DNA from: an uncultured Acidobacteriota bacterium
Lineage (GTDB): Bacteria; Acidobacteriota; Vicinamibacteria; Vicinamibacterales; 2-12-FULL-66-21
Direction: 5' to 3'
Assembly: GCA_963820905.1 (NCBI GenBank)
Contig: CAWGBU010000002.1
Location: forward strand, 366,144-430,143
DNA length: 64,000 bases
This document shows, one piece after another, positions 4,797 to 62,472 of the stretch. A program made the translations under genes and the position numbers. The notes below the pieces were generated by a model. That model did no database searches, was not told where the DNA came from, and saw only the letters and a list, made by a program, of their open reading frames with translations. Numbering within the stretch: position 1 is the first letter of the stretch; each line of letters begins with the position of its first letter.

Positions 4797-5539
4797 TTCA
4801 AGAGCGGCCTTAGGCTTTGGGCTCTAGGCTTTAGCGCTTTTCAAACGCTGTAGGGTCCACCTTCAGGTCAATGCCCTTCGGAAATTTGCACTGTGTGCCG
4901 GCTCATAGGAGCCGGCCCGTTGGACATAGAGCCCATCTCACCAGCCGGCAGTCTCTTCCACCGGTGGGAAACATTCCAGCGTACCGATCAGCCGCGGTGG
5001 GCTGGCCGGCTCGGACCGCCGGCTTCGACAGCGCGGAAAAAATGGCCCCTCCGCCGGTCCTGACGTTGGCTGGCGACGGCTTGGGGTGATCCGCGCGCCG
5101 GTAAAGCATCGGTTCGGCAACGAGGTCGCTCGACCGCTTGGGACGAATCCGCGCCGCCGCCAGGTGGGATGCTCCGGGACCATTTTTAGAGGCTTCGCTG
5201 ATCGCGCTGCTCAACGTCGGCCCGAGCCGACCAGCCCACCACGGCGTGGAGGGCCAACCCGAGCGGTCGGGCGGTGCGCGTGGCGGCCGGCGGCCCTCGG
5301 AGCGCGCCGACGCGCGGCGTCAGCCGGAACGCGCGCGGAGCGATTCCGCGCGGCGCCTTCCGGCCCCGTGATCTTCCAGGTCACGAAGGACCACTGGCGG
5401 CCCGCGGCGCCTGACGCCGGATGCCAGAGCCAGCTCGTAGGCGGCGCGGCGGCGCCAGGGCGTACAGCCGGAGCGCGCGTTCCCGGCGCGCGGAGCGGGC
5501 CGCGGGCCGCCACGCGCACCGCACGATCGATCGACAATC

Positions 5540-10563: not shown

Positions 10564-11505
10564 TCAGGCCGCGGGTCTGAGCGGCGGGAGTACGGCTTCG
10601 ATGCGGCTCCGCGCGGGCTCGAGCCATGGCGGCAGCACGAGCGACTCGCCCAGGTGCTCGCGATCCTCGTCGACCGCGAAACCGGGGCCGTCCGTCGCCA
10701 GCTCGAAGAGCACGCCGCCCGGCTCCTTGAAGTAGACCGACTTGAACCAGAATCGATCGATGACGGGCGTCGCCTGCGCCCCGCCGGACTCGACCTGCGC
10801 GCGCACCGCGAGCTGATGCAGGTCGTCGTCCACGCGCCACGCGAGATGATGAACGCTGCCGACGCCCCACGCGCCGCGGCGTTCCTCGGCCGCCTCGCGG
10901 ACGTCCACGACCCCGGCGCCGTCGGCGAAACCGTAGCGCGTCCATCCGTTCTCTTCGGCGATGCGCTCGAAGCCGAGCACCGCCGTCAGGAACTCGGTGG
11001 TCGGCGCCAGGCTCCGTTCCCAGATCTGCGCGCCGTACAGTCCTCGCACCTGACGTTCGGGCTCGACGGTGCTGTGCTGCCACGGCGAGAATTTCTGCCG
11101 CTTCGAACGCGATGGTTCCACGAGCGCGAGCCGCAGCCCGTGCGGATCGACGAGCGGCAGCACGCGATCGCCGAAGCGCGTTTCGGCCGCACTGACGCGG
11201 GCCTCGTACTTCTGGAGCCGCTGTCCCCAGAAGTCGAGGCTGCCGGCCGGCACTTCGAGCGCGACTTCCACCGCCAGCCCGTGTCCGATGCGGGGCGGCG
11301 CCATCTGCGCCCACGGGAAGAACGTGAGGTCGGTGCCGGGCGATCCTTCCGCGTCCGCGTAGAACAGGTGATAGGTGCCGGGATCGTCCTGGTTGACGCT
11401 TTTCTTGACGAGCCGCATGCCGAGCACGCCGCTGTAGAAGTCGAGGTTCTCCTGCGCGGGACCGGAGATCGCCGTGATGTGGTGCAGCCCGTTGACGCTC
11501 CGCAT
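10564..11505 (-). CDS. Ring-cleaving dioxygenase of the VOC/glyoxalase superfamily, with two VOC domains
   Basis: The 313-aa ORF begins MRSVNGLHHITAISGPAQENLDFYSGVLGMRLVKK... and carries a second VOC module. This is the MhqO/YfiE-like architecture. Confidence 0.75.
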   Translation of the reverse strand: MRSVNGLHHITAISGPAQENLDFYSGVLGMRLVKKSVNQDDPGTYHLFYADAEGSPGTDLTFFPWAQMAPPRIGHGLAVEVALEVPAGSLDFWGQRLQKYEARVSAAETRFGDRVLPLVDPHGLRLALVEPSRSKRQKFSPWQHSTVEPERQVRGLYGAQIWERSLAPTTEFLTAVLGFERIAEENGWTRYGFADGAGVVDVREAAEERRGAWGVGSVHHLAWRVDDDLHQLAVRAQVESGGAQATPVIDRFWFKSVYFKEPGGVLFELATDGPGFAVDEDREHLGESLVLPPWLEPARSRIEAVLPPLRPAA

Positions 11506-11534
11506 GAGGGGATCTTAGATCGGCTTTCAGAACT

Positions 11535-11559
11535 GCTGTAGTGTCCGGCTTCAGCCGGA
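11535..11559. repeat. REP-like hairpin element
   Basis: ctgtagtgtccggcttcagccggac. Confidence 0.8.
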
Positions 11560-13098
11560 CCTCACCCACCGGGCTTTTTGATCAGCCTGTCCAGGAAGCC
11601 CTTCAGTTCGTCCTTCGCCCTGTTGCGAAACGCGCGGCCGAGCGCGGCCTGCACGTCGATGAATACCGTAGGGCGACCCGACGGTCCCGTTGATCGTCGC
11701 CGGGAGCACGATGCGCTCCCCTTCGCGCGCGAGCCTGTACAGGTCGCGTCCGGCCTGCGCGCTGAGCTCCTTCGAGAGGACGACGTCCGTGCGAAAGGCG
11801 ATTGCCTTCGAGGCGAGCGAGAGGTTGCCCCGGCCGGTCATGTCGAGATCCCGCGATTCGAACACCAGGTCGCTCGTGGAGAGCCGCGGCCCGTCGATCG
11901 CGAGCGTCGCGGCGATCCGGTTGAACGCTTCGCCGGATCCTGCGGGGCGCTCGCCAGTCGACCTGCCGAAGGCGAGCACGACGCTCCGGACGATTTCGAG
12001 GCCGGGGATGCGGCCGTCCGTGGCCCTGACGCGCGCCGAGCCGCGCGCGTCGCGAATGGCCTCGGCGGGATCGGTACCTGGCGCGCCGAGGCTGATCGTG
12101 CCCGCGAGCCGTCCGGTGATCGAGCCGGGTGCTCCAGCGAACTCGGTCAGCTTCGGCACGTCGACGTTGTCGAAGCTGCCCTTCCACTCGTAGCGGCCGG
12201 CGTTGAGCGCGCCGCGGAAGGCCGCCGATCCCGTGTAGTTCCCGCCGAAGACGCCCATTCGCAGATCGTCGAGCAGCACGTCGCTGCCCCGCGCGCGAGC
12301 GGTGGCGCTCATGTCGGTGAGCCCGACGCCGAGCGCCCTGCCCTGCCGCGCGCGAATCCGTATCTCGACGTCGAGCGGCACGCGGACCGGAGGCGCCGCG
12401 CTCGCGGCAGACGGACGCGCCGCGCCGGCGGGCGTCGCCGCCGCGAGAAACGCCATCACCCCGTCGAGATCCAGCGTCTGCGCATCGACCGTGAACGTTC
12501 CGGTCCGCTTCGCGACGCTGGCGAGCTCGCCCGACGCCGTGAACGTCGAGGCATCCGACGCGCCGCGCATCTCGCGGATCACGAGGCGGTCGCCGCCGGT
12601 GAACGACCCGTCCAGGTTCACCAGCAGGGCGCGGTCGCCGGCCATCAGCGTCACGTCGCGCAGCGCGATCGTGCGAACGGAATCAACCGTGAGCGCGTAC
12701 GACGACGGCGCAGCCGGCGGTTTCGCTCCCGGCGCTTCGCCTGCCATGGCCGCCATGAGCGCGAGCGCCCAGCGCACGTCGATCCGGCTCTCCTCGACCG
12801 AGACGTCCGCCTCCTCGACGCGGCGCCGCACGAGCGCGCGGAGGCCCGTCGCGAGCCGGACGCGTTCGATCCGGACCTCGCGCGAGGAACCGATGGCGAT
12901 GCCGTCGAGGTCGAGGCTGACGCGGGGGAAGAACCGCGGGCTCGCGGTCCGAATCGTCACGGGCTGCCCGAGCGCAATCGTCGCCTGCGATTCGATCGCC
13001 GCCTTGATGCGATCGCCGCCGAGCGCGATGCGCACCGCGATCGCGAGCAGCGCCGCGAGAACGGCAATCACCCCGAGAAGGATCAGGAGACGCTTCAT
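11551..13098 (-). CDS. AsmA-family outer-membrane assembly protein
   Basis: The start MKRLLILLGVIAVLAALLAIAVRIA (ATG reverse complement at 13096-13098) overlaps the stop of the upstream deacetylase. An N-terminal TM helix is followed by an AsmA-like beta-rich domain. Confidence 0.6.
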   Translation of the reverse strand: MKRLLILLGVIAVLAALLAIAVRIALGGDRIKAAIESQATIALGQPVTIRTASPRFFPRVSLDLDGIAIGSSREVRIERVRLATGLRALVRRRVEEADVSVEESRIDVRWALALMAAMAGEAPGAKPPAAPSSYALTVDSVRTIALRDVTLMAGDRALLVNLDGSFTGGDRLVIREMRGASDASTFTASGELASVAKRTGTFTVDAQTLDLDGVMAFLAAATPAGAARPSAASAAPPVRVPLDVEIRIRARQGRALGVGLTDMSATARARGSDVLLDDLRMGVFGGNYTGSAAFRGALNAGRYEWKGSFDNVDVPKLTEFAGAPGSITGRLAGTISLGAPGTDPAEAIRDARGSARVRATDGRIPGLEIVRSVVLAFGRSTGERPAGSGEAFNRIAATLAIDGPRLSTSDLVFESRDLDMTGRGNLSLASKAIAFRTDVVLSKELSAQAGRDLYRLAREGERIVLPATINGTVGSPYGIHRRAGRARPRVSQQGEGRTEGLPGQADQKARWVRSG

Positions 13099-13844
13099 GA
13101 CGTCGAGAAATGGGACGACTGGAGTGACGGATCGCAGAGACGCCCGAACGAGAAACCCTGCGATCGAAGCGCCGGCGCCAGGAGCCGCACGGTCTCCGCC
13201 GCATGGCGGCGATCGGCGCGCGGGTTGGCGTGGTGCCCGTCGTGGATGACGACGATGTCGCCGGCGGAGGCCTTGCGGGCGAGCCGGCTGGCGGTGCGGT
13301 CGCCGCGAGGCGTCCGCCACCAGCTCCAGTCCCACATGCCCCAGCTCCAGCCGGCGAGGCGGTAGCCGATGCGATCGAGGCCCTCGTACATCGACGCGCT
13401 GCGCCATCCGCCGTGCGGGCGGAACAACCTGCACGGCTCGACGCCCGCGATCGACGTGATGCGATCGGCGGCGTTCCGCAGGCGCGCCGCGAGCGCGTCG
13501 GGCGGCATGATCATCAGCTGCCGCGTGCCGCTGTGCAGCCCGATGGCATGGCCCTCGTCCGCTATCCGCTTGACGATCGGCGCGGTCTCCGCCGTGATGT
13601 GCTCGTCTATCAGAAAGAACGTCGCCGCGATCTTCTCCTGCTGCAGCGCGTCCAGGAGCGCCGGCGTCCACTCCGGGTTCGGCCCATCGTCGAACGTCAG
13701 GTAGATCCGCGGCGGCGTTCCGGCCGGAGCGGCAATCCGCCAGACCGACTTCGACGGCCGGAACGCTTCCAGCAGGAACGGCGCGGGCGCCGTGTGCGAG
13801 AGCACCGCGGCGCCGGCGATGACGAGCACGAGGAGGACGATCAC
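13095..13844 (-). CDS. Polysaccharide deacetylase (NodB/CE4 family)
   Basis: YLTFDDGP motif and other CE4 histidine motifs; 249 aa. Confidence 0.8.
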   Translation of the reverse strand: MIVLLVLVIAGAAVLSHTAPAPFLLEAFRPSKSVWRIAAPAGTPPRIYLTFDDGPNPEWTPALLDALQQEKIAATFFLIDEHITAETAPIVKRIADEGHAIGLHSGTRQLMIMPPDALAARLRNAADRITSIAGVEPCRLFRPHGGWRSASMYEGLDRIGYRLAGWSWGMWDWSWWRTPRGDRTASRLARKASAGDIVVIHDGHHANPRADRRHAAETVRLLAPALRSQGFSFGRLCDPSLQSSHFSTS

Positions 13845-50159: not shown

Positions 50160-50606
50160 GTATCGGATTGTGTATGGATTCTGGATTGCCCCGGTAGCTT
50201 CGATCGTCTGTCTCACCTGGATGACGAGGGTGGCCCCCTCGAGGCGCATGACAGTCGTAAGCACGTACGGCGCAGCGGCGTCCCGTACAGGCGTGCGCGT
50301 CACCAACGACTCCCCGTCCCAGACCGTGGTCGAAACCTGAACGTATTCCGGAGCGTTCGCCGGCTTGATGACGTTCCTGCTTTCGGACCCGTCGAGCTTT
50401 TGGACCCAGCGAATCACGCCAGACGGAGACTGAGTCTCAACTACGAGCGTGTCGGGGGTCTGCGAGATGGTCGTGGTCTCGACCGCTTCACCGGGTGACG
50501 TGGGGATCTTTTTCCACTTGCCGGAGAAGTCAGGTTTCGTCTGCTCCAGTCCGGCCGTGAGCGCCAGACTCAGAAGGAGCCGCGCGACAACCAGCATCAT
50601 GGGCAC
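50151..50606 (-). CDS. Secreted hypothetical protein (small beta-rich, lipocalin-like)
   Basis: Signal peptide [22 protein letters not shown]. 151 aa. Confidence 0.4.
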
Positions 50607-50669
50607 CTCGCTGCTTCATTTCACGCCGCTTCTTTGACTCCTCTAGGTCAGCGCACGGCGGCACCCGAC

Positions 50670-52670
50670 TTACTTCGGCACGTCCAGCGCAGGGTTGCGC
50701 GAGAAGAACCCGGCCGGGATCATCTTGAAGCCTACGTGCGTGACCGGCATCACCGGCCACTCCTCCGGCCGCGGCATGTGCGTGACCCCCATCGTGTACC
50801 AGACGACGACGTCCTGATTGGCCAGCGGCTCGTTGTTGGCGGCCCACGTCGGCAGACCCGGCGCCGCCGAGGCTCTGGTTCGGATACGCGCCGCCGGCGT
50901 ACATCTCGTCCGCGTTGTAGCGCGTGGCCCAGAAGTGATGGTTGATGAAGCCCGCGCGCTGCCGCACCTGTGAGGCCGGCCCCACATACGGGATCGAGTT
51001 CACGCCGGGCACGATGATGTAGCTGGTGTGAGAGCCGAGCGCGTTCTGCGCCGACGGATTGACGACGGCCCAGGTGCGCGCCGACGCCATGCTCATGTGC
51101 GCGCTGCGCGGCGGCCTCGGTCCCGAGCACGGTCTCCTTCATGATCATCCCGTTCAGCGCACGGATTGCCCGGCCCGGCCGGGAGCGCGCTGGTGTTCAT
51201 CTCGTGCACGGAGTTGCTCTGGCCGTCCACGTCGAAGTCGAGCCTGAAGTTGAAGAAGTGCTGGTGGTGCGGCGCGACGACGTTGGCGGCGACGAGGTGG
51301 CCGGACTGACGCCGGCGCCGTGCCGCCGGCCTTCGCGTCGCTCACGCCCTTCGGCAGCATGATGCCGGTCAGCGCGCCGTCCAGCTCCAGCACGCCGTCC
51401 TGGTGGAAGATCCAGTTGAGGGCGTAGTCGTAGTTGCCGATCGTGGCGATGAAGAAGATCACGAGCTGGCGGGCGCGGCGCGACTCGTTCGTCTTCGGAG
51501 TAGACCTCGTAGTGCTTCCACAGCATGCCGCCGTCGCGCTCGTAGATGCCGACCGCCCGCGGCAGCACGTACGGCTTGCCGTCGTCGCCCGCATAAGGTC
51601 GACGTCGAGCAGCGTCGCGTTCGGCGGCGCGTCGGTGTTCGGCTCGATCGAGCTGGCCAGCCGGCCCATGCCGTATTCGCCGACGTCGAAGGCGCTGCGC
51701 CAGCGCCAGTTCTTGTCCGTGTCGCCGTACGGCACCGCCATCTCGGAGAGCGACGGCGCGATAGAGGATCGGCCGCAGGCGCCCTTCGTCCTCGTAGCCG
51801 ACCGTGTGCAGCACGAGACCTTCGCGCGGGTGCATGGTGTAGCGGAAGCGCCACTTCTGCCAGCGTATCTCCTGGCCGGTGATGGTGAAGCTGGCGCCGT
51901 CGGGCTGGCTGATATCGAGCGCTTGGGCGCCTCACGCGCGCCGGTGGACTTCTCGTCCAGCTCCTGACTGGGCGGCGGCAGCGGGACGGACGCCGCTGTC
52001 GATGAACTCGACGACCTTCTCCGCGTTCATGTCGACGAGCGCGACGACCCCTTCGATCGGCCGGCCGTAGAAGTTGGTCTGCGTCGCCTTTGAAATAGGA
52101 CAGCGCGCGCAGCAGCCGCTTGCCCTGAAACTGCGGCGCGACCTGGCCGACGGCCCAGTTGTCGATCTGGACCTTGCTGAAATCCTCGATGCCGCGCTTC
52201 CGCATCGCCGCCTGCCAGCGCGGATCCTTCTTGACGATGTCGACCAGCACGTCGTATTCGTCCTCGAGCACGACCGGCTGCACGCCCTTTGATTTCGGTC
52301 CACGACACGACGCGCGGCGACTTCACGTCCACGACCGCTTCGAACGTGCGATTCCCCTTGCGATCCAGGATCACGGCGAACGCCCGCCGGGCGATCGGGG
52401 CGCCGGCCGTGAAGCTGAGCACGTCGCTCTTGGCGGGCTCCTTCAGCACGATCGTCGCGAACCGGGCCCCCTCCGGAAACTGCGGCACCGCGGCGAGCAG
52501 CTTGGCCGCCGTCTCGATCTCGGCGGCGCTCAAGGGATCGAGAGGATGCTGGGCTGCGGTTGCAGCCTGGGAGGGACCGGCGCGGCGGCGGTCTGGGCCG
52601 CCCGGACGGGCACGACGACGAGGGGGGAACAAGCCAGCAGGATGACGGCGGCGCGGCGGAAGAAGGTCAT
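50670..52670 (-). pseudogene. Copper amine oxidase (TPQ-containing), disrupted by multiple frameshifts
   Basis: Signal peptide MTFFRRAAVILLACSPLVVVPVRAAQ at 52670. The N2/N3 domains, the catalytic core with the TPQ consensus NYDY (LVIFFIATIGNYDYALNWIFHQDGVLELDGALTG) and the C-terminal DVVVWYTMGVTHMPRPEEWPVMP can be followed only by switching frame at least 5 times. One junction is consistent with a 1-nt indel (YPNQ|S). Confidence 0.75.
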
Positions 52671-53202
52671 GCGCGGATTATCGCCGAATTGGCTGAGCCG
52701 GCACTCGCGCCTGCCCAGAGTCAGCGGAATCGCGCCGGCGTTCGCGGGGTCACATCAGCCCCGCGGCGCCTCGGCCTACGCGCGGAAAACCGCACCTCCG
52801 GCGGCTCACGATCCCCGCGTCGGCTTGGGTTGCTCGAGGGCCGGTGAGCCATCAGCTTGCGGTACCGGGGAATTCCGGGCGGCGGTGACGAATCAGCGCC
52901 GACGCGGATCGGGACGCCTGCGGCGCGGTTTTCGATCTGACGCAGCGCGCTGGCCGCATCGCGCCGCGGGGCTGATATGACGGCGCCGACTGCTGACACC
53001 TAACGCTGACCGTGTATTCTCGCGCTGTCCCCGGTCAGCGTATCGCGATGGTGTCCATCCTTTCAGTGTGGTCGTGACAGGGTGCCACTTGCTATCCTGC
53101 AGGCGCGCGGCAGGGGCGTTACACAAGTAGGGACATTGATAGTTAAGCGCTGATGCTGGACCCTGTCTCAGGTCAGGCACCTCTAGGATCAGCGAGGCGG
53201 AT

Positions 53203-53270
53203 GGTGCGCCCGGGGGCGCGCTCGAAAGGTCGCCCGATTCCCTTCCGGGGCGTAGCCGCTTGATCCTGGC
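53203..53270. repeat. Copy 1 of a conserved 55-68-nt element (core CGCRCTCGAAAGGTYGCMC, variable hairpin, GCCGCTTGATC)
   Basis: ggtgcgcccgggggcgcgctcgaaaggtcgcccgattcccttccggggcgtagccgcttgatcctggc; 43 nt 3' of the lipocalin-like gene. Confidence 0.7.
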
Positions 53271-53312
53271 ATCGGCGTGCTTCGCAAAGGCCGCAGGAAC
53301 TGCACCGGCTTC

Positions 53313-53855
53313 TCATTGCTTTTCAAAGACCGAGACATCATTGATTGTCTGACCCTTGGCGTTGATCCCTTCGGTTGTGATGGTCATGACTTTCCCGTCC
53401 CTCGAGATCACGCGCGTGCCAGTGATGACAACCCGGCCAGCTCTCTTCTGTGTAAAGTCTGCAGTGAAGGCGTCGATTCGCTTCAACGCAAGCGTATCGA
53501 TGTCTGGATCACCGGTCACCGGACGCTCCTTCCCATCGTAGACAATCGTCCATTCCCGAGTCGTGGTCTTCCCTTCGACGTCCACGACCGTGGAGGTCGC
53601 TTTGATTTCCTGGCGCACCGTCATGTACGTCATCGGTTTGCTTGCGCCTTTGGATGTCACCTTGGTCGCCTGGCCTTCCATGACGTACGTGCACGAGTCA
53701 CTCTGGGGAGCGGGGCCTGGGCTGAACTTCGATTTCGCGACATTCAGCACCCACGTGCCGATGATCGGGTCGGCATCCTGAGTCGCCAGAGGCCTTCCGA
53801 ACGGCATGAGGATGATTCCGAGGACCGTGAGGCATCGAAGCATGCGCCTGTTCAT
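53313..53855 (-). CDS. Secreted lipocalin-like hypothetical protein
   Basis: Signal peptide; GTWVLNVAKSKF... beta-rich. 180 aa. Locally lower GC. Confidence 0.45.
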   Translation of the reverse strand: MNRRMLRCLTVLGIILMPFGRPLATQDADPIIGTWVLNVAKSKFSPGPAPQSDSCTYVMEGQATKVTSKGASKPMTYMTVRQEIKATSTVVDVEGKTTTREWTIVYDGKERPVTGDPDIDTLALKRIDAFTADFTQKRAGRVVITGTRVISRDGKVMTITTEGINAKGQTINDVSVFEKQ

Positions 53856-54057
53856 TGGCGCCTTCCCTTCACGTTTTGCACGCGTTTGAGTATGCCAGCA
53901 TCGGACGGAGTCCGCCGTGGTTCTTAGCGGAGGCGGAAGCGGGCCAGCGCGGCGGCGAGCGCGTCGGGGAGTTCGAGGGGCGAAGCCCCTCGATTGAAAA
54001 TGAAGCGCGCCCGGCCCGCCTTCGCGCTCGGCGCTACGGCGCGCTCGGCCTGGGGTA

Positions 54058-54120
54058 TCGCGCCCGGCACTCGAAAGGTTGCACGATCCGTTTTCAGGGG
54101 ATCGCCGCTTGATCTTATGA
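54058..54120. repeat. Copy 2 of the conserved element
   Basis: tcgcgcccggcactcgaaaggttgcacgatccgttttcaggggatcgccgcttgatcttatga. Confidence 0.7.
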
Positions 54121-54196
54121 GCCTGACTTACGGCTCACCTCGTGGGGGTGCGGATTGACGGCGTCGGAGACGCCAACAACCACATCCCAGAAGCAT

Positions 54197-54307
54197 CTAC
54201 CAGACATAGGCTGAGCCGAAGTTCCAGACTAGAACGATGCCCACCACCGTGAGCCCTATCCATAACAGTCGCTTGTCAGAGCTATCCGTTTTGACGTGGA
54301 TCTCCAT
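54197..54307 (-). CDS. Tiny hydrophobic ORF (36 aa), candidate small membrane peptide
   Basis: MEIHVKTDSSDKRLLWIGLTVVGIVLVWNFGSAYVW-stop, with a strong RBS GGAGGTGAGG 5 nt upstream of the ATG. Manual translation only. Confidence 0.3.
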   Translation of the reverse strand: MEIHVKTDSSDKRLLWIGLTVVGIVLVWNFGSAYVW

Positions 54308-54355
54308 AGGACCTCACCTCCGTACTGACCCTTAGACACCGCCGCGCGTCACCTG

Positions 54356-54410
54356 CTCGCGCGCTCGAAAGGTTGCACCCCCCTTCCGAGGGATTGCCGC
54401 TTGATCGTAC
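54356..54410. repeat. Copy 3 of the conserved element
   Basis: ctcgcgcgctcgaaaggttgcaccccccttccgagggattgccgcttgatcgtacc. Confidence 0.7.
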
Positions 54411-54475
54411 CTCGACCGGGTGATCTGCGGGCCCACGCGCTTGGGTTCATTGGTCGGGAGAGCGATTCGCCATCG

Positions 54476-54604
54476 TCAGAACGGATTCATGATCATGCCG
54501 ATCACTACGAGGATGAGGCCCACCAACATCACGAAAACGAAGAACGCCACGGCGATACCGATCCACTTTAGAATAAGCAAGATCCACTCTATTAGAACCG
54601 TCAA
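54476..54604 (-). CDS. Tiny hydrophobic ORF (42 aa, TTG start), candidate small membrane peptide
   Basis: (L/M)TVLIEWILLILKWIGIAVAFFVFVMLVGLILVVIGMIMNPF-stop, with GGGAGG 6 nt upstream of the TTG. It shares an LxWIGxxV motif with the 36-aa ORF. Manual translation only. Confidence 0.3.
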   Translation of the reverse strand: MTVLIEWILLILKWIGIAVAFFVFVMLVGLILVVIGMIMNPF

Positions 54605-54877
54605 GGGCTGCCTCCCACCGTTTCTGTTTGCTCACGCAAGCCATACCTCCCCTTAGCGACTAGAATCCCGACCGGCGCAGGGCGATGGCTACGCCTCGGG
54701 CCGGGCTCGACGAACCAGATGGTGTCAGGCAGCGAACGAGATGGTATCAGGCAGTGAATCGTGAATCGCCGGGTGGCGCATCGCGTTCACGATTCACTGC
54801 CTGACACCCGCTCACGGGGGAGTTGACCGTCGAGCGGCTGCTCGTCGGCTAGAATGGCCTACCAACTAAACTAATTG

Positions 54878-54945
54878 TGGTGCGCCCGGGGGCGCACTCG
54901 AAAGGTTGCACTACCAAGTTTGCAGGCATTGCGGCCTGATCGGAG
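54878..54945. repeat. Copy 4 of the conserved element
   Basis: gtggtgcgcccgggggcgcactcgaaaggttgcactaccaagtttgcaggcattgcggcctgatcgg. Confidence 0.65.
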
Positions 54946-54969
54946 ATCGGTCGGCAACCCTCTCTCGCG

Positions 54970-55119
54970 TCAAGCAAACAGATACAGCAGAATGACTACA
55001 ACGTTCAGGGCCGCGAGAACGAAACATACACTACGCCCGAGTTTGTCCTCGGTTCTCAGGGCCAGCATGAACATTCCGACGGCACCGCACACATTTCCGA
55101 CCAGTCCGAGCGTGTTCAT
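54970..55119 (-). CDS. Tiny hydrophobic ORF (49 aa), candidate small membrane peptide
   Basis: MNTLGLVGNVCGAVGMFMLALRTEDKLGRSVCFVLAALNVVVILLYLFA-stop. No clear RBS. Confidence 0.25.
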   Translation of the reverse strand: MNTLGLVGNVCGAVGMFMLALRTEDKLGRSVCFVLAALNVVVILLYLFA

Positions 55120-55165: not shown

Positions 55166-55612
55166 TCAAGACCGTTCGCGACGAGCGACGCGCCGGCCCC
55201 GAGCCGCTCGGTGCCGACGCTGTAACTCCTTCAGTTGGCGAATGGCCTCCTGATCCACGACGCGCTCCATCCGTTTCGTGTCGCCTCGCTTGGGGAGCAG
55301 TGGTATGAGCCGCTGGAAGCCTGTCTGGTCGTCGAGTACGCCGGCCCAGACGACCGGCGTGCTCGAGCGATCGAGGAAGTACCGAATGCCTTCGAGAGCC
55401 GTCGTGAGCGCCTGGAACGCATCGATTCCGCGGCCGTATTCAACCCGGCTCATTCCTGCTCCGCTGATGCGGAAGGGGCACTCCCACTCGTCGGCGCGTT
55501 TCGTCTTTCGCGGCTTGCCGAGCGAGACGACGATGGTCCGTCGTGTCGCTCCGCTTTGCTGAAGACGCCGCTCGGCTATCACGGTCCCAAAAGGGCTGTC
55601 ACTACGGCTCAT
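55166..55612 (-). CDS. Hypothetical protein (148 aa) next to tRNA-Arg
   Basis: MSRSDSPFGTVIAERRLQQSGATRRTIVVSLGKPRK...; uninterrupted ORF starting 44 nt from the tRNA 3' end. No homology recognised. Confidence 0.35.
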   Translation of the reverse strand: MSRSDSPFGTVIAERRLQQSGATRRTIVVSLGKPRKTKRADEWECPFRISGAGMSRVEYGRGIDAFQALTTALEGIRYFLDRSSTPVVWAGVLDDQTGFQRLIPLLPKRGDTKRMERVVDQEAIRQLKELQRRHRAARGRRVARRERS

Positions 55613-55655: not shown

Positions 55656-55732
55656 TGGTGCGCCCGGCAGGGCTCGAACCTGCAACCTTCGGCTCCGGAG
55701 GCCGACGCTCTATCCAATTGAGCTACGGGCGC
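55656..55732 (-). tRNA. tRNA-Arg (anticodon CCG)
   Basis: Reverse complement GCGCCCGTAGCTCAATTGGATAGAGCGTCGGCCTCCGGAGCCGAAGGTTGCAGGTTCGAGCCCTGCCGGGCGCACCA. Cloverleaf with anticodon loop CTCCGGA, encoded CCA. Confidence 0.9.

Positions 55733-62395: not shown

Positions 62396-62472
<77 letters not shown>

Follow-up and report, generated by a model that had tools for sequence, protein, structure and literature searches.

Repeated modules closing small gene units behind tRNA-Arg in Acidobacteriota: candidate attachment sites without a linked integrase

Downstream of a tRNA-Arg(CCG) gene in an uncultured Acidobacteriota bacterium of the Vicinamibacterales (GenBank assembly GCA_963820905.1, contig CAWGBU010000002.1) lies an array of small genes punctuated by four copies of a short, hairpin-bearing repeat. 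Here we analyse this array within a stretch of 64,000 nucleotides (positions 366,144–430,143 of the contig; hereafter the window, numbered from its first letter), in which all credible genes between 53.2 and 55.7 kb lie on the minus strand. The array begins immediately 3′ of the tRNA gene and runs, on that strand, from tRNA-Arg(CCG) through two genes, repeat module c4, one gene, c3, one gene, c2, one gene and c1. Each repeat sits directly 3′ of a small open reading frame (ORF), 20–90 nt beyond the stop codon, closing a short unit of lower GC content with one or two small genes; GC content is 57–61% in the array against 65–70% in the surroundings, and GC at third codon positions (GC3) is 0.62–0.73 in the array ORFs against 0.8–0.9 in the core genes of the window. 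We propose that the repeats are attachment-type modules, and that the small gene units they delimit, devoid of an integrase, accumulate at the 3′ ends of tRNA-Arg genes with the help of a recombinase acting in trans, an interpretation to which we give about an even chance of being right.

Anatomy of the repeats

A preliminary description of the window, made from its letters, had placed four copies of the element at 53203–53270, 54058–54120, 54356–54410 and 54878–54945, and the sequence there is as it described, although it read the non-coding strand. Since the minus strand carries all real genes as well as tRNA-Arg(CCG), we read the element on that strand, as a 5′ box GATCARGCNGC, a variable hairpin and a 3′ box GTGCAACCTTTCGAG. 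At the hairpin centre, AA is invariant in a 16-copy alignment, and the loop mostly contains GAA. The conserved cores named earlier are present, but their consensus strings are slightly idealised: copy 2 has GGCAC, not CGCRC, copy 1 has GTA before GCCGC and the 3′ core of copy 4 is GCGGCCTGATC. Within the 64 kb, the 13-mer CTCGAAAGGTYGC has exactly four exact matches, all on the plus strand and all at the copies, the other five matches having two mismatches, as expected by chance; the second core, GCCGCTTGATC, is exact in copies 1–3 and has two mismatches in copy 4. A covariance model (R1) trained on 16 members of the family has no matches in the window other than these four, which score 64–79 bits.

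After the 3′ box, copies 1 and 4 (modules c1 and c4) carry GCGCCCCCGGGCGCACCA, with YGCGCCCCCGGGCGCACCA following GTGCAACCTTTCGAG. Complete copies read GCGCCCCC, then CGGGCGC-R-CCA, the end of a complete module being …CCCCCGGGCGC. CGGGCGC-R-CCA is the acceptor 3′ strand, discriminator base and CCA of tRNA-Arg, and the 3′ hairpin GCGCCC/GGGCGC together with RCCA copies the acceptor stem of that tRNA. The last 12 nt of c4 and c1 are identical to the 3′ end of the adjacent tRNA-Arg(CCG); this 12-mer, CCGGGCGCACCA, occurs exactly three times in the 64 kb, always on the minus strand, at the tRNA 3′ end, the c4 end and the c1 end. The palindrome GCGCCCGGGGGCGC that the preliminary description had seen in two copies is indeed in copies 1 and 4, but it is really a copy of the tRNA end preceded by its own complement. 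That identity had been missed, as had the tRNA-Arg gene 700 nt away and the position of every copy at the close of a gene unit, and these three features together point to a DNA recombination site.

The tRNA likeness is confined to the module end. Alignment by eye had lined the motifs up with the D-loop, anticodon arm and T-loop, but a pseudo-tRNA identity of the whole element was rejected: a local alignment scored z ~4, but nearly all of this signal stems from the last 12 nt, and once the acceptor 3′ strand is removed the similarity equals that of shuffles (mean z ~0 over 19–22 copies), so only the terminal 12–20 nt are demonstrably tRNA-derived. Neither ARAGORN nor the Rfam tRNA model calls the copies. 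The preliminary description had recognised no known riboswitch or sRNA; Rfam (Rfam 15) returns only three tRNAs over the whole window at the gathering threshold and no match on the copies in 53100–55100 at E ≤ 10. Promoter boxes of the sigma-54 or extracytoplasmic function (ECF) type were rejected by eye, no conserved −10/−12 partner standing at fixed spacing, and a promoter and terminator consensus scan of the array gave nothing above chance and no U-tract terminator.

The features of the array are listed in Table 1. A 65-aa ORF that overlaps the 42-aa ORF has a GC3 of 0.38, a value typical of non-coding sequence. After c4, CAATT resembles the sequence after the tRNA. Homologues of the 180-aa protein number 901, of which one is labelled Vicinamibacterales; homologues of the DUF6968 protein elsewhere show no linkage to modules or tRNAs.

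Table 1. Features of the array, from the tRNA gene outwards
Feature	Position in window	Strand	Basis and details
tRNA-Arg(CCG)	55656..55732	minus	ARAGORN; Rfam tRNA 71.9 bits
3′ end of tRNA-Arg(CCG), CCGGGCGCACCA	55656-55667	minus	sequence copied at ends of c4 and c1 (12-mer search)
DUF6968 protein, 147 aa; first gene of unit A	55166..55609	minus	Pfam PF22302, E=1e-13; GC3 0.72
Hydrophobic ORF, 49 aa; second ORF of unit A	54970..55119	minus	ORF list, translation; GC3 0.62; no match in Pfam
Module c4 (copy 4), complete	54872..54946	minus	model R1 78.8 bits; exact 12-mer; parts GATCAGGCCGC, hairpin, GTGCAACCTTTCGAG, TGCGCCCCCGGGCGCACCA; tRNA-end copy 54878-54889
Transmembrane-like ORF, 42 aa; cargo between c4 and c3	54476..54604	minus	ORF list; GGGAGG precedes
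Module c3 (copy 3)	54339..54411	minus	R1 63.6 bits; boxes and hairpin CCCTC-GGAA-GGGGG (fold)
Hydrophobic ORF, 36 aa (MEIHVKTDSSDKRLLWIGLTVVGIVLVWNFGSAYVW)	54197..54307	minus	ribosome-binding site GGAGGTGA; GC3 0.73; conserved in L009 (alignment)
Module c2 (copy 2)	54050..54119	minus	R1 63.8 bits; hairpin GATCC-CCTGAAAAC-GGATC
Free-standing tRNA 3′-end remnant CCGGGCGCGC	54005-54014, within 53973..54014	minus	left boundary of 180-aa unit
Trailer hairpin GAGGGGCTTCGCCCCTC, after remnant	53973-53991	minus	
Protein with signal peptide, 180 aa; cargo of last unit	53313..53855	minus	ORF; GC3 0.72
Module c1 (copy 1), complete; distal array end	53196..53270	minus	R1 76.5 bits; exact 12-mer; tRNA-end copy 53202-53213

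A second tRNA-Arg gene (TCG) at 62396–62472 is followed by neither modules nor small units, and a core gene starts ~60 nt downstream; not every tRNA-Arg gene is therefore occupied. Between c4 and the 42-aa ORF, at 54737–54814, TCAGGCAGTGAATCGTGAA… and its complement form a perfect inverted repeat of 23 bp around a ~20-nt loop, adjoined by a third, direct half-copy, GGTGTCAGGCAGCGAACGAG; it has only weak, miRNA-like Rfam matches and is missing from every fetched locus. At the array border, overlapping minus-strand ORFs in different frames (52027–52632, 51459–52283, 51197–51835, 51154–51741 and 50530–51096) resemble fragments of one long gene, so 50530–52632 may hold a frameshifted gene or pseudogene.

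Relatives and unit boundaries

About 20 further copies were recovered, exclusively from Acidobacteriota metagenome-assembled genomes and soil metagenomes. Pattern scans gave true members in loci L003, L008, L009, L014, L038, L040, L071 and L087; L089 (three copies), L093 and L090 (decayed) were added through contigs that carry homologues of the 180-aa gene, and a model search found extra copies in L038 and L014. Six of the nine loci from the genome collection are chance matches within coding sequence of unrelated phyla, only six of the 78 metagenome loci are true members, and the viral-contig scan yielded one chance match and no true member. A spread across phyla was rejected, the matches in unrelated phyla all being of this chance kind. 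Most of the further copies follow a tRNA-Arg gene and share its orientation. This holds for all five loci in which the surroundings were first long enough to tell, where the anticodon of the tRNA-Arg gene is CCG in the window and L038, TCG in L009 and TCT in L008 and L040. The cargo of the other arrays comprises a zf_Tbcl treble-clef zinc-finger protein, an Imm50 immunity protein, a glyoxalase/bleomycin-resistance protein, a GNAT acetyltransferase and small unknown ORFs. In two arrays (L038 1621–1944, with coding-like GC3, and L040 3305–3574), the gene is reversed while the module keeps the orientation of the tRNA, which argues for a DNA polarity at the level of the array rather than a 3′-untranslated-region element at the level of the gene.

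Short, hairpin-bearing and found behind unrelated genes (in L089, a 128-aa ORF, the 180-aa gene and a GNAT gene), the copies invite comparison with a dispersed selfish repeat of the repetitive extragenic palindromic (REP) or miniature inverted-repeat transposable element (MITE) kind, inserted by transposition. We consider this origin very improbable. Neither terminal inverted repeats nor target-site duplications are visible in the alignments, the copies of the window stand together in a single co-oriented array, leaving the remaining 61 kb free of them, and no viral or other matches fall outside a narrow Acidobacteriota group. Nor was a filled-versus-empty site pair found, the alignment of L089 with L092 showing homology of the gene only and, perhaps, a very decayed module. 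The preliminary description had named a REP or MITE match as grounds for abandoning its own reading; the copy pattern resembles neither.

The boundaries of the units were surveyed at every CCGGGCGC listed in the loci. Leftward of this tRNA-end core, the sequence is GGTTCGAGCCCTG or GGTTCGAGYCCTG in tRNA genes and CCTTTCGAGYGCGCCC in modules; rightward, what follows a module repeats what follows the local tRNA gene. The direct repeats that flank the first unit always start at CCGGGCGC and run on into locus-specific sequence, spanning ~18 nt in the window, 22 nt in L008, ~45 nt in L009 and at least 60 nt in L038; in L040 the repeat takes in whole GC-rich trailers with the hairpin GAGGGGCTTCGCCCCTC. 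The 811-bp unit with the 180-aa gene occurs in four different contexts (window, L089, L003 and L008). On its right side, homology with L003, L089 and L008 stops directly after CGGGCGCRC, and on its left side, homology between the window and L089 begins exactly at CCGGGCGCGC, window 54014. The unit with the 36-aa ORF is common to the window and L009, where the module upstream of it, at a junction homologous to that of c3, has homologous flanks, a wholly different hairpin and a different preceding ORF. As judged from these alignments, the boundaries are the expected signatures of units joined at the tRNA-end core.

Several further repeats accompany the arrays. A recurrent GC-rich trailer, composed of the hairpin GAGGGGCTTCGCCCCTC and then …ACGCTCTCTCGC…GCGCTCCGTTCGCGTGGCTC…, follows tRNA-Arg genes and modules (L009 4760–4810; L040 2698–2790, 3661–3825 and 4206–4400; L091 9756–9900; L093 10636–10710; window 53973–53991) and is repeated several times in tandem in L040. 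The motif GGTCGAGGTA(A/C)G(A/C)TCA precedes some modules, namely c3 (window 54402–54417) and e2 in L009, and also stands at trailer ends before unit ORFs (L040 2776–2795 and 3808–3830); at L040 3808 it opens an apparent, very decayed module. In L089, three tandem copies of GTAGCGCGACTTGTCCGCC (4925–4990) lie between a module and a free CCGGGCGC remnant, with an IS481-family transposase gene 0.5 kb upstream of that module. Two 3′ halves of tRNA-Arg(TCT) start in the anticodon loop (L003 1690–1740 and L089 9795–9850) and share a preceding arm of ~45 nt, GGCA.TTCTC.CAAC.TGTTGA.AAGCAA…GACACAGGA; this resembles the attachment (att) site of another integrative element, one with its crossover in the anticodon loop.

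Constraint on the boxes and pairing within the hairpin

When the 180-aa gene is compared with its L008 orthologue (70% amino-acid identity; codon position 3 identity 0.71), the adjoining modules agree at 11/11 positions in the 5′ box, 13/15 in the 3′ box and 15/16 in the palindrome, so the boxes are more conserved than any codon position of the adjacent gene. Across the family, the 15-nt 3′ box, which is not tRNA sequence, is invariant or nearly so in ~20 copies from at least 10 assemblies. The hairpin changes faster (10/19 against L093, and 12/19 for c2 against its L009 counterpart, inside flanks that are ~90% identical). Nor does the constraint hold everywhere, since the module of L090, a close relative, has decayed.

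The stems that had been claimed for copies 1–3 exist, and copy 4 has one too (TGCC/GGTA, with a G-T pair on the minus strand). The further claim of a covarying hairpin between conserved flanks is borne out by a half-swap test among 11 lineages, in which native halves outpair swapped ones (−9.0 against −6.8 ± 0.6 kcal/mol) and none of 5,000 permutations reaches the native value. The hairpin folds in most copies and is weak in L008, L087 and L040a. RNAalifold and a fixed-register pair count are negative, with 60% of cells paired, like shuffles, over ~11 independent lineages; these column-based tests fail because the stems shift register, and realignment by covariance model was uninformative, the stems being out of register. 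The sense strand folds slightly better in 16 copies (−8.2 against −6.3 kcal/mol), a gap that is nearly gone with 24. Template switching in quasi-palindromes can produce compensatory-looking changes without selection.

From the compensatory pairing, the preliminary description had argued for a structured RNA, or at least a structure-dependent site. The second, more guarded wording fits the evidence best. Against the first stand the fixed-column test, which is no better than shuffles, the weak strand asymmetry of folding and the two arrays with a reversed neighbouring gene. A cis-acting RNA element on the sense transcript, serving as a processing, 3′-end-stabilizing or termination signal, appears to us unlikely. 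RNase P or RNase Z might then act on transcripts that run from the tRNA-Arg promoter through the small ORFs. Such a role would suit the shared orientation of modules, tRNA and most ORFs, the position of the modules shortly past the stop codons, the co-varying hairpin halves, the slight advantage of the sense strand in 16 copies, the boxes kept in place beyond synonymous sites and the mimicry of the tRNA-Arg acceptor end by a GC hairpin and RCCA. It accords poorly with the lack of any Rfam match at E ≤ 10 and of a U-tract terminator, with a strand asymmetry that all but vanishes in the larger sample, with the negative fixed-register test, with modules unchanged beside a gene on the other strand and with the lack of a T-stem around the TTCGAG motif, which leaves no tRNA-like elbow. 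An RNA role alone, moreover, leaves the CCGGGCGC-starting direct repeats and the unit boundaries unexplained.

Much the same doubt attaches to the idea that the copies are non-functional relics, that is, decaying traces (att remnants or pseudo-tRNA copies) of ordinary integrase-bearing islands or of local duplication at tRNA-Arg genes, in which gene conversion keeps the copies similar and template switching keeps the hairpins paired. Partial tRNA copies beside tRNA genes are common integration debris (PMC9897764). Other tRNA-Arg fragments abound here as well, as anticodon-loop half tRNAs (L003 and L089) and free CCGGGCGC remnants; decay is clear in L090, L092 and L038:5317, some hairpins are weak (those named above), and identical hairpins, which stand behind unrelated genes and also twice within one array, suggest conversion. 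Relics of this kind would not lead one to expect a near-invariant 3′ box that differs from tRNA sequence, nor boxes more conserved than codon positions 1–3 of an adjacent orthologous gene; no integrase remnants lie inside any array examined, and every unit is tiny with intact-looking ORFs.

Candidate attachment modules and known systems

In the mechanism that we favour, a recombinase encoded elsewhere in the genome would join the module end of a free, probably circular, unit to a CCGGGCGC end, either that of the tRNA gene or that of a resident module. The tRNA would be left intact, and the module with its tRNA-end copy would land at the distal side of the insert, as attR, successive additions pushing older units outward. 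Protein would bind the site at the boxes, and the hairpin would serve as a structural spacer, possibly single-stranded in use as in the attC sites of integrons. Since the units share the orientation of the tRNA, they may be transcribed from its promoter.

That partial tRNA copies serve as att sites, and that such copies accumulate in island arrays, is established (PMC9897764; bioRxiv 10.1101/2020.12.28.424599). Compared with such elements (Reiter 1989; Williams 2002; the tycheposon islands of Prochlorococcus, accretion of streptococcal integrative and conjugative elements (ICEs) and cis-mobilizable elements (CIMEs), and the ssrA islands of Dehalococcoides), the arrays are alike in bearing a copy of the tRNA 3′ end at the far side of each insert, as a direct repeat at the distal boundary in the window, L008, L009, L038 and L040. 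The inserts are likewise co-oriented, atypical in composition and loaded with accessory genes, and several are stacked behind one tRNA. Integrase-less derivatives of tRNA-att elements are known, CIMEs and satellites among them. The units here differ in measuring only 0.3–0.9 kb with one or two ORFs and in holding no integrase gene or remnant in the arrays examined; to the tRNA end the repeat adds a module of ~55 nt, not derived from the tRNA and conserved across genomes, in which two invariant boxes flank a co-varying hairpin, and three tRNA-Arg isoacceptors are used. What is unusual is thus the tiny units, the arrays empty of integrase remnants, and the conserved boxes combined with a structure-constrained hairpin.

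By analogy, the logic of the module resembles that of attC, without the attC sequence. As in integron attC arrays and in clusters of attC sites lacking an integrase (CALINs), each single-gene unit is closed by a 55–75-nt site whose ends are conserved in sequence and whose centre is variable and self-complementary, the sites keep one polarity even where an occasional gene is inverted, the cargo is similar and the recombinase is not adjacent. That the copies are canonical attC sites, forming a CALIN served by an IntI elsewhere in the genome, is nevertheless an explanation that we hold to be extremely improbable. The arrangement of ORF plus site and cargo of the integron-cassette type (GNAT, glyoxalase, immunity proteins and small unknown ORFs) speak for it, as does the frequency of CALINs without a nearby intI (PMC4889954). 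An attC site is defined by the cores R″ (RYYYAAC) and R′ (GTTRRRY) at its two ends, whose AAC and GTT triplets are conserved and complementary (PMC4889954); it forms an imperfect palindrome in which the conserved ends (R and L boxes) pair, with extrahelical bases. A regular-expression search of both strands found no RYYYAAC…GTTRRRY pair in the window, which rejects a canonical attC, and in a relaxed search no complementary AAC/GTT 7-mers span any copy. Pairing between the boxes finds no support either: they are not mutually complementary, sharing only a GC/GC pair or, by eye, at most 5 bp with a bulge (GATCARG against CCTTTCGA), predicted folds do not pair them, and where the 5′ box varies the 3′ box shows no matching change. 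The site here ends in a tRNA-Arg 3′ end, the arrays abut tRNA-Arg instead of attI/intI, and no intI that would make a complete integron (intI, attI and Pc beside an array) was found by a tyrosine-recombinase motif search of the window and the loci or by Pfam on 20 mid-size ORFs of the window.

Two other systems share parts of this design. In Escherichia coli, the 178-bp repeats linked to tyrT (rtT RNA, RF00391) lie downstream of a tRNA, each end in a copy of the tRNA 3′ end and are co-transcribed with the tRNA. The repeats here are likewise downstream of a tRNA and carry its 3′ end; unlike the rtT repeats, which are duplicates of one sequence, the units hold different genes and the module has its own boxes and hairpin, with no Rfam match. 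The pdif/XerCD modules of Acinetobacter plasmids and the integrative mobile elements exploiting Xer (IMEX), such as the CTX phage, are small modules without a recombinase that lie between short recombination sites and are stacked at one chromosomal site, and the CTX phage uses a folded, single-stranded site. Unlike in those systems, no dif-like 11-6-11 site was identified here and the target is a tRNA end; to invoke Xer in module recombination would be pure speculation.

Several observations weigh against attachment-type modules. Direct repeats of 45–110 nt exceed what a crossover needs, and local duplication could explain them. The module keeps its place downstream of an orthologous gene whose amino-acid identity has fallen to 70%, a conservation that could be explained at least as easily by a function for the gene or the host, for example at the RNA level. 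The modules of L089 and L093 have no intact tRNA within 10–20 kb, although partial tRNA-Arg 3′ ends are present nonetheless. Some copies are incomplete, c3 in the window and e2 in L009 being without the tRNA-end copy and c2 terminating in TGCCGGGCGCG, a shortened version at 54060–54067. No circular form, empty site or strain-level polymorphism was observed; the search for empty sites recovered none, the flanks of tRNA-Arg(CCG) not being syntenic among the loci. Finally, no recombinase was found in the window or the fetched arrays by a tyrosine-recombinase motif expression, Pfam on 20 mid-size ORFs of the window and precomputed Pfam annotations for L089–L098. One was seen only in L090, as a truncated integrase 2.3 kb away from its decayed module: there, at 10923–13599 and 0.3–2.3 kb downstream of the module, a group II intron reverse transcriptase (RVT_1 and GIIM) stands beside a truncated tyrosine recombinase (Phage_int_SAM_4).

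Should the copies be relics, they would be ordinary island debris; should they act as RNA, they would be a case of tRNA-end mimicry used to process or stabilize mRNAs transcribed from a tRNA promoter. If they are active sites, soil Acidobacteria would collect single-gene units at tRNA genes without a linked integrase. A more tentative extension, which we regard as rather doubtful, is an integron-like cassette platform in Vicinamibacterales-like soil Acidobacteria, with the tRNA-Arg 3′ end in the place of attI, the tRNA promoter in that of Pc, the 60–75-nt module in that of attC and a recombinase, whether dedicated or of the host, acting in trans. In either form, active sites would represent a second route to cassette arrays, parallel to integrons, in a phylum that ranks with the most abundant and the least tractable in soil, and GTGCAACCTTTCGAG plus CCGGGCGC would provide a simple sequence handle for mining such units from metagenomes.

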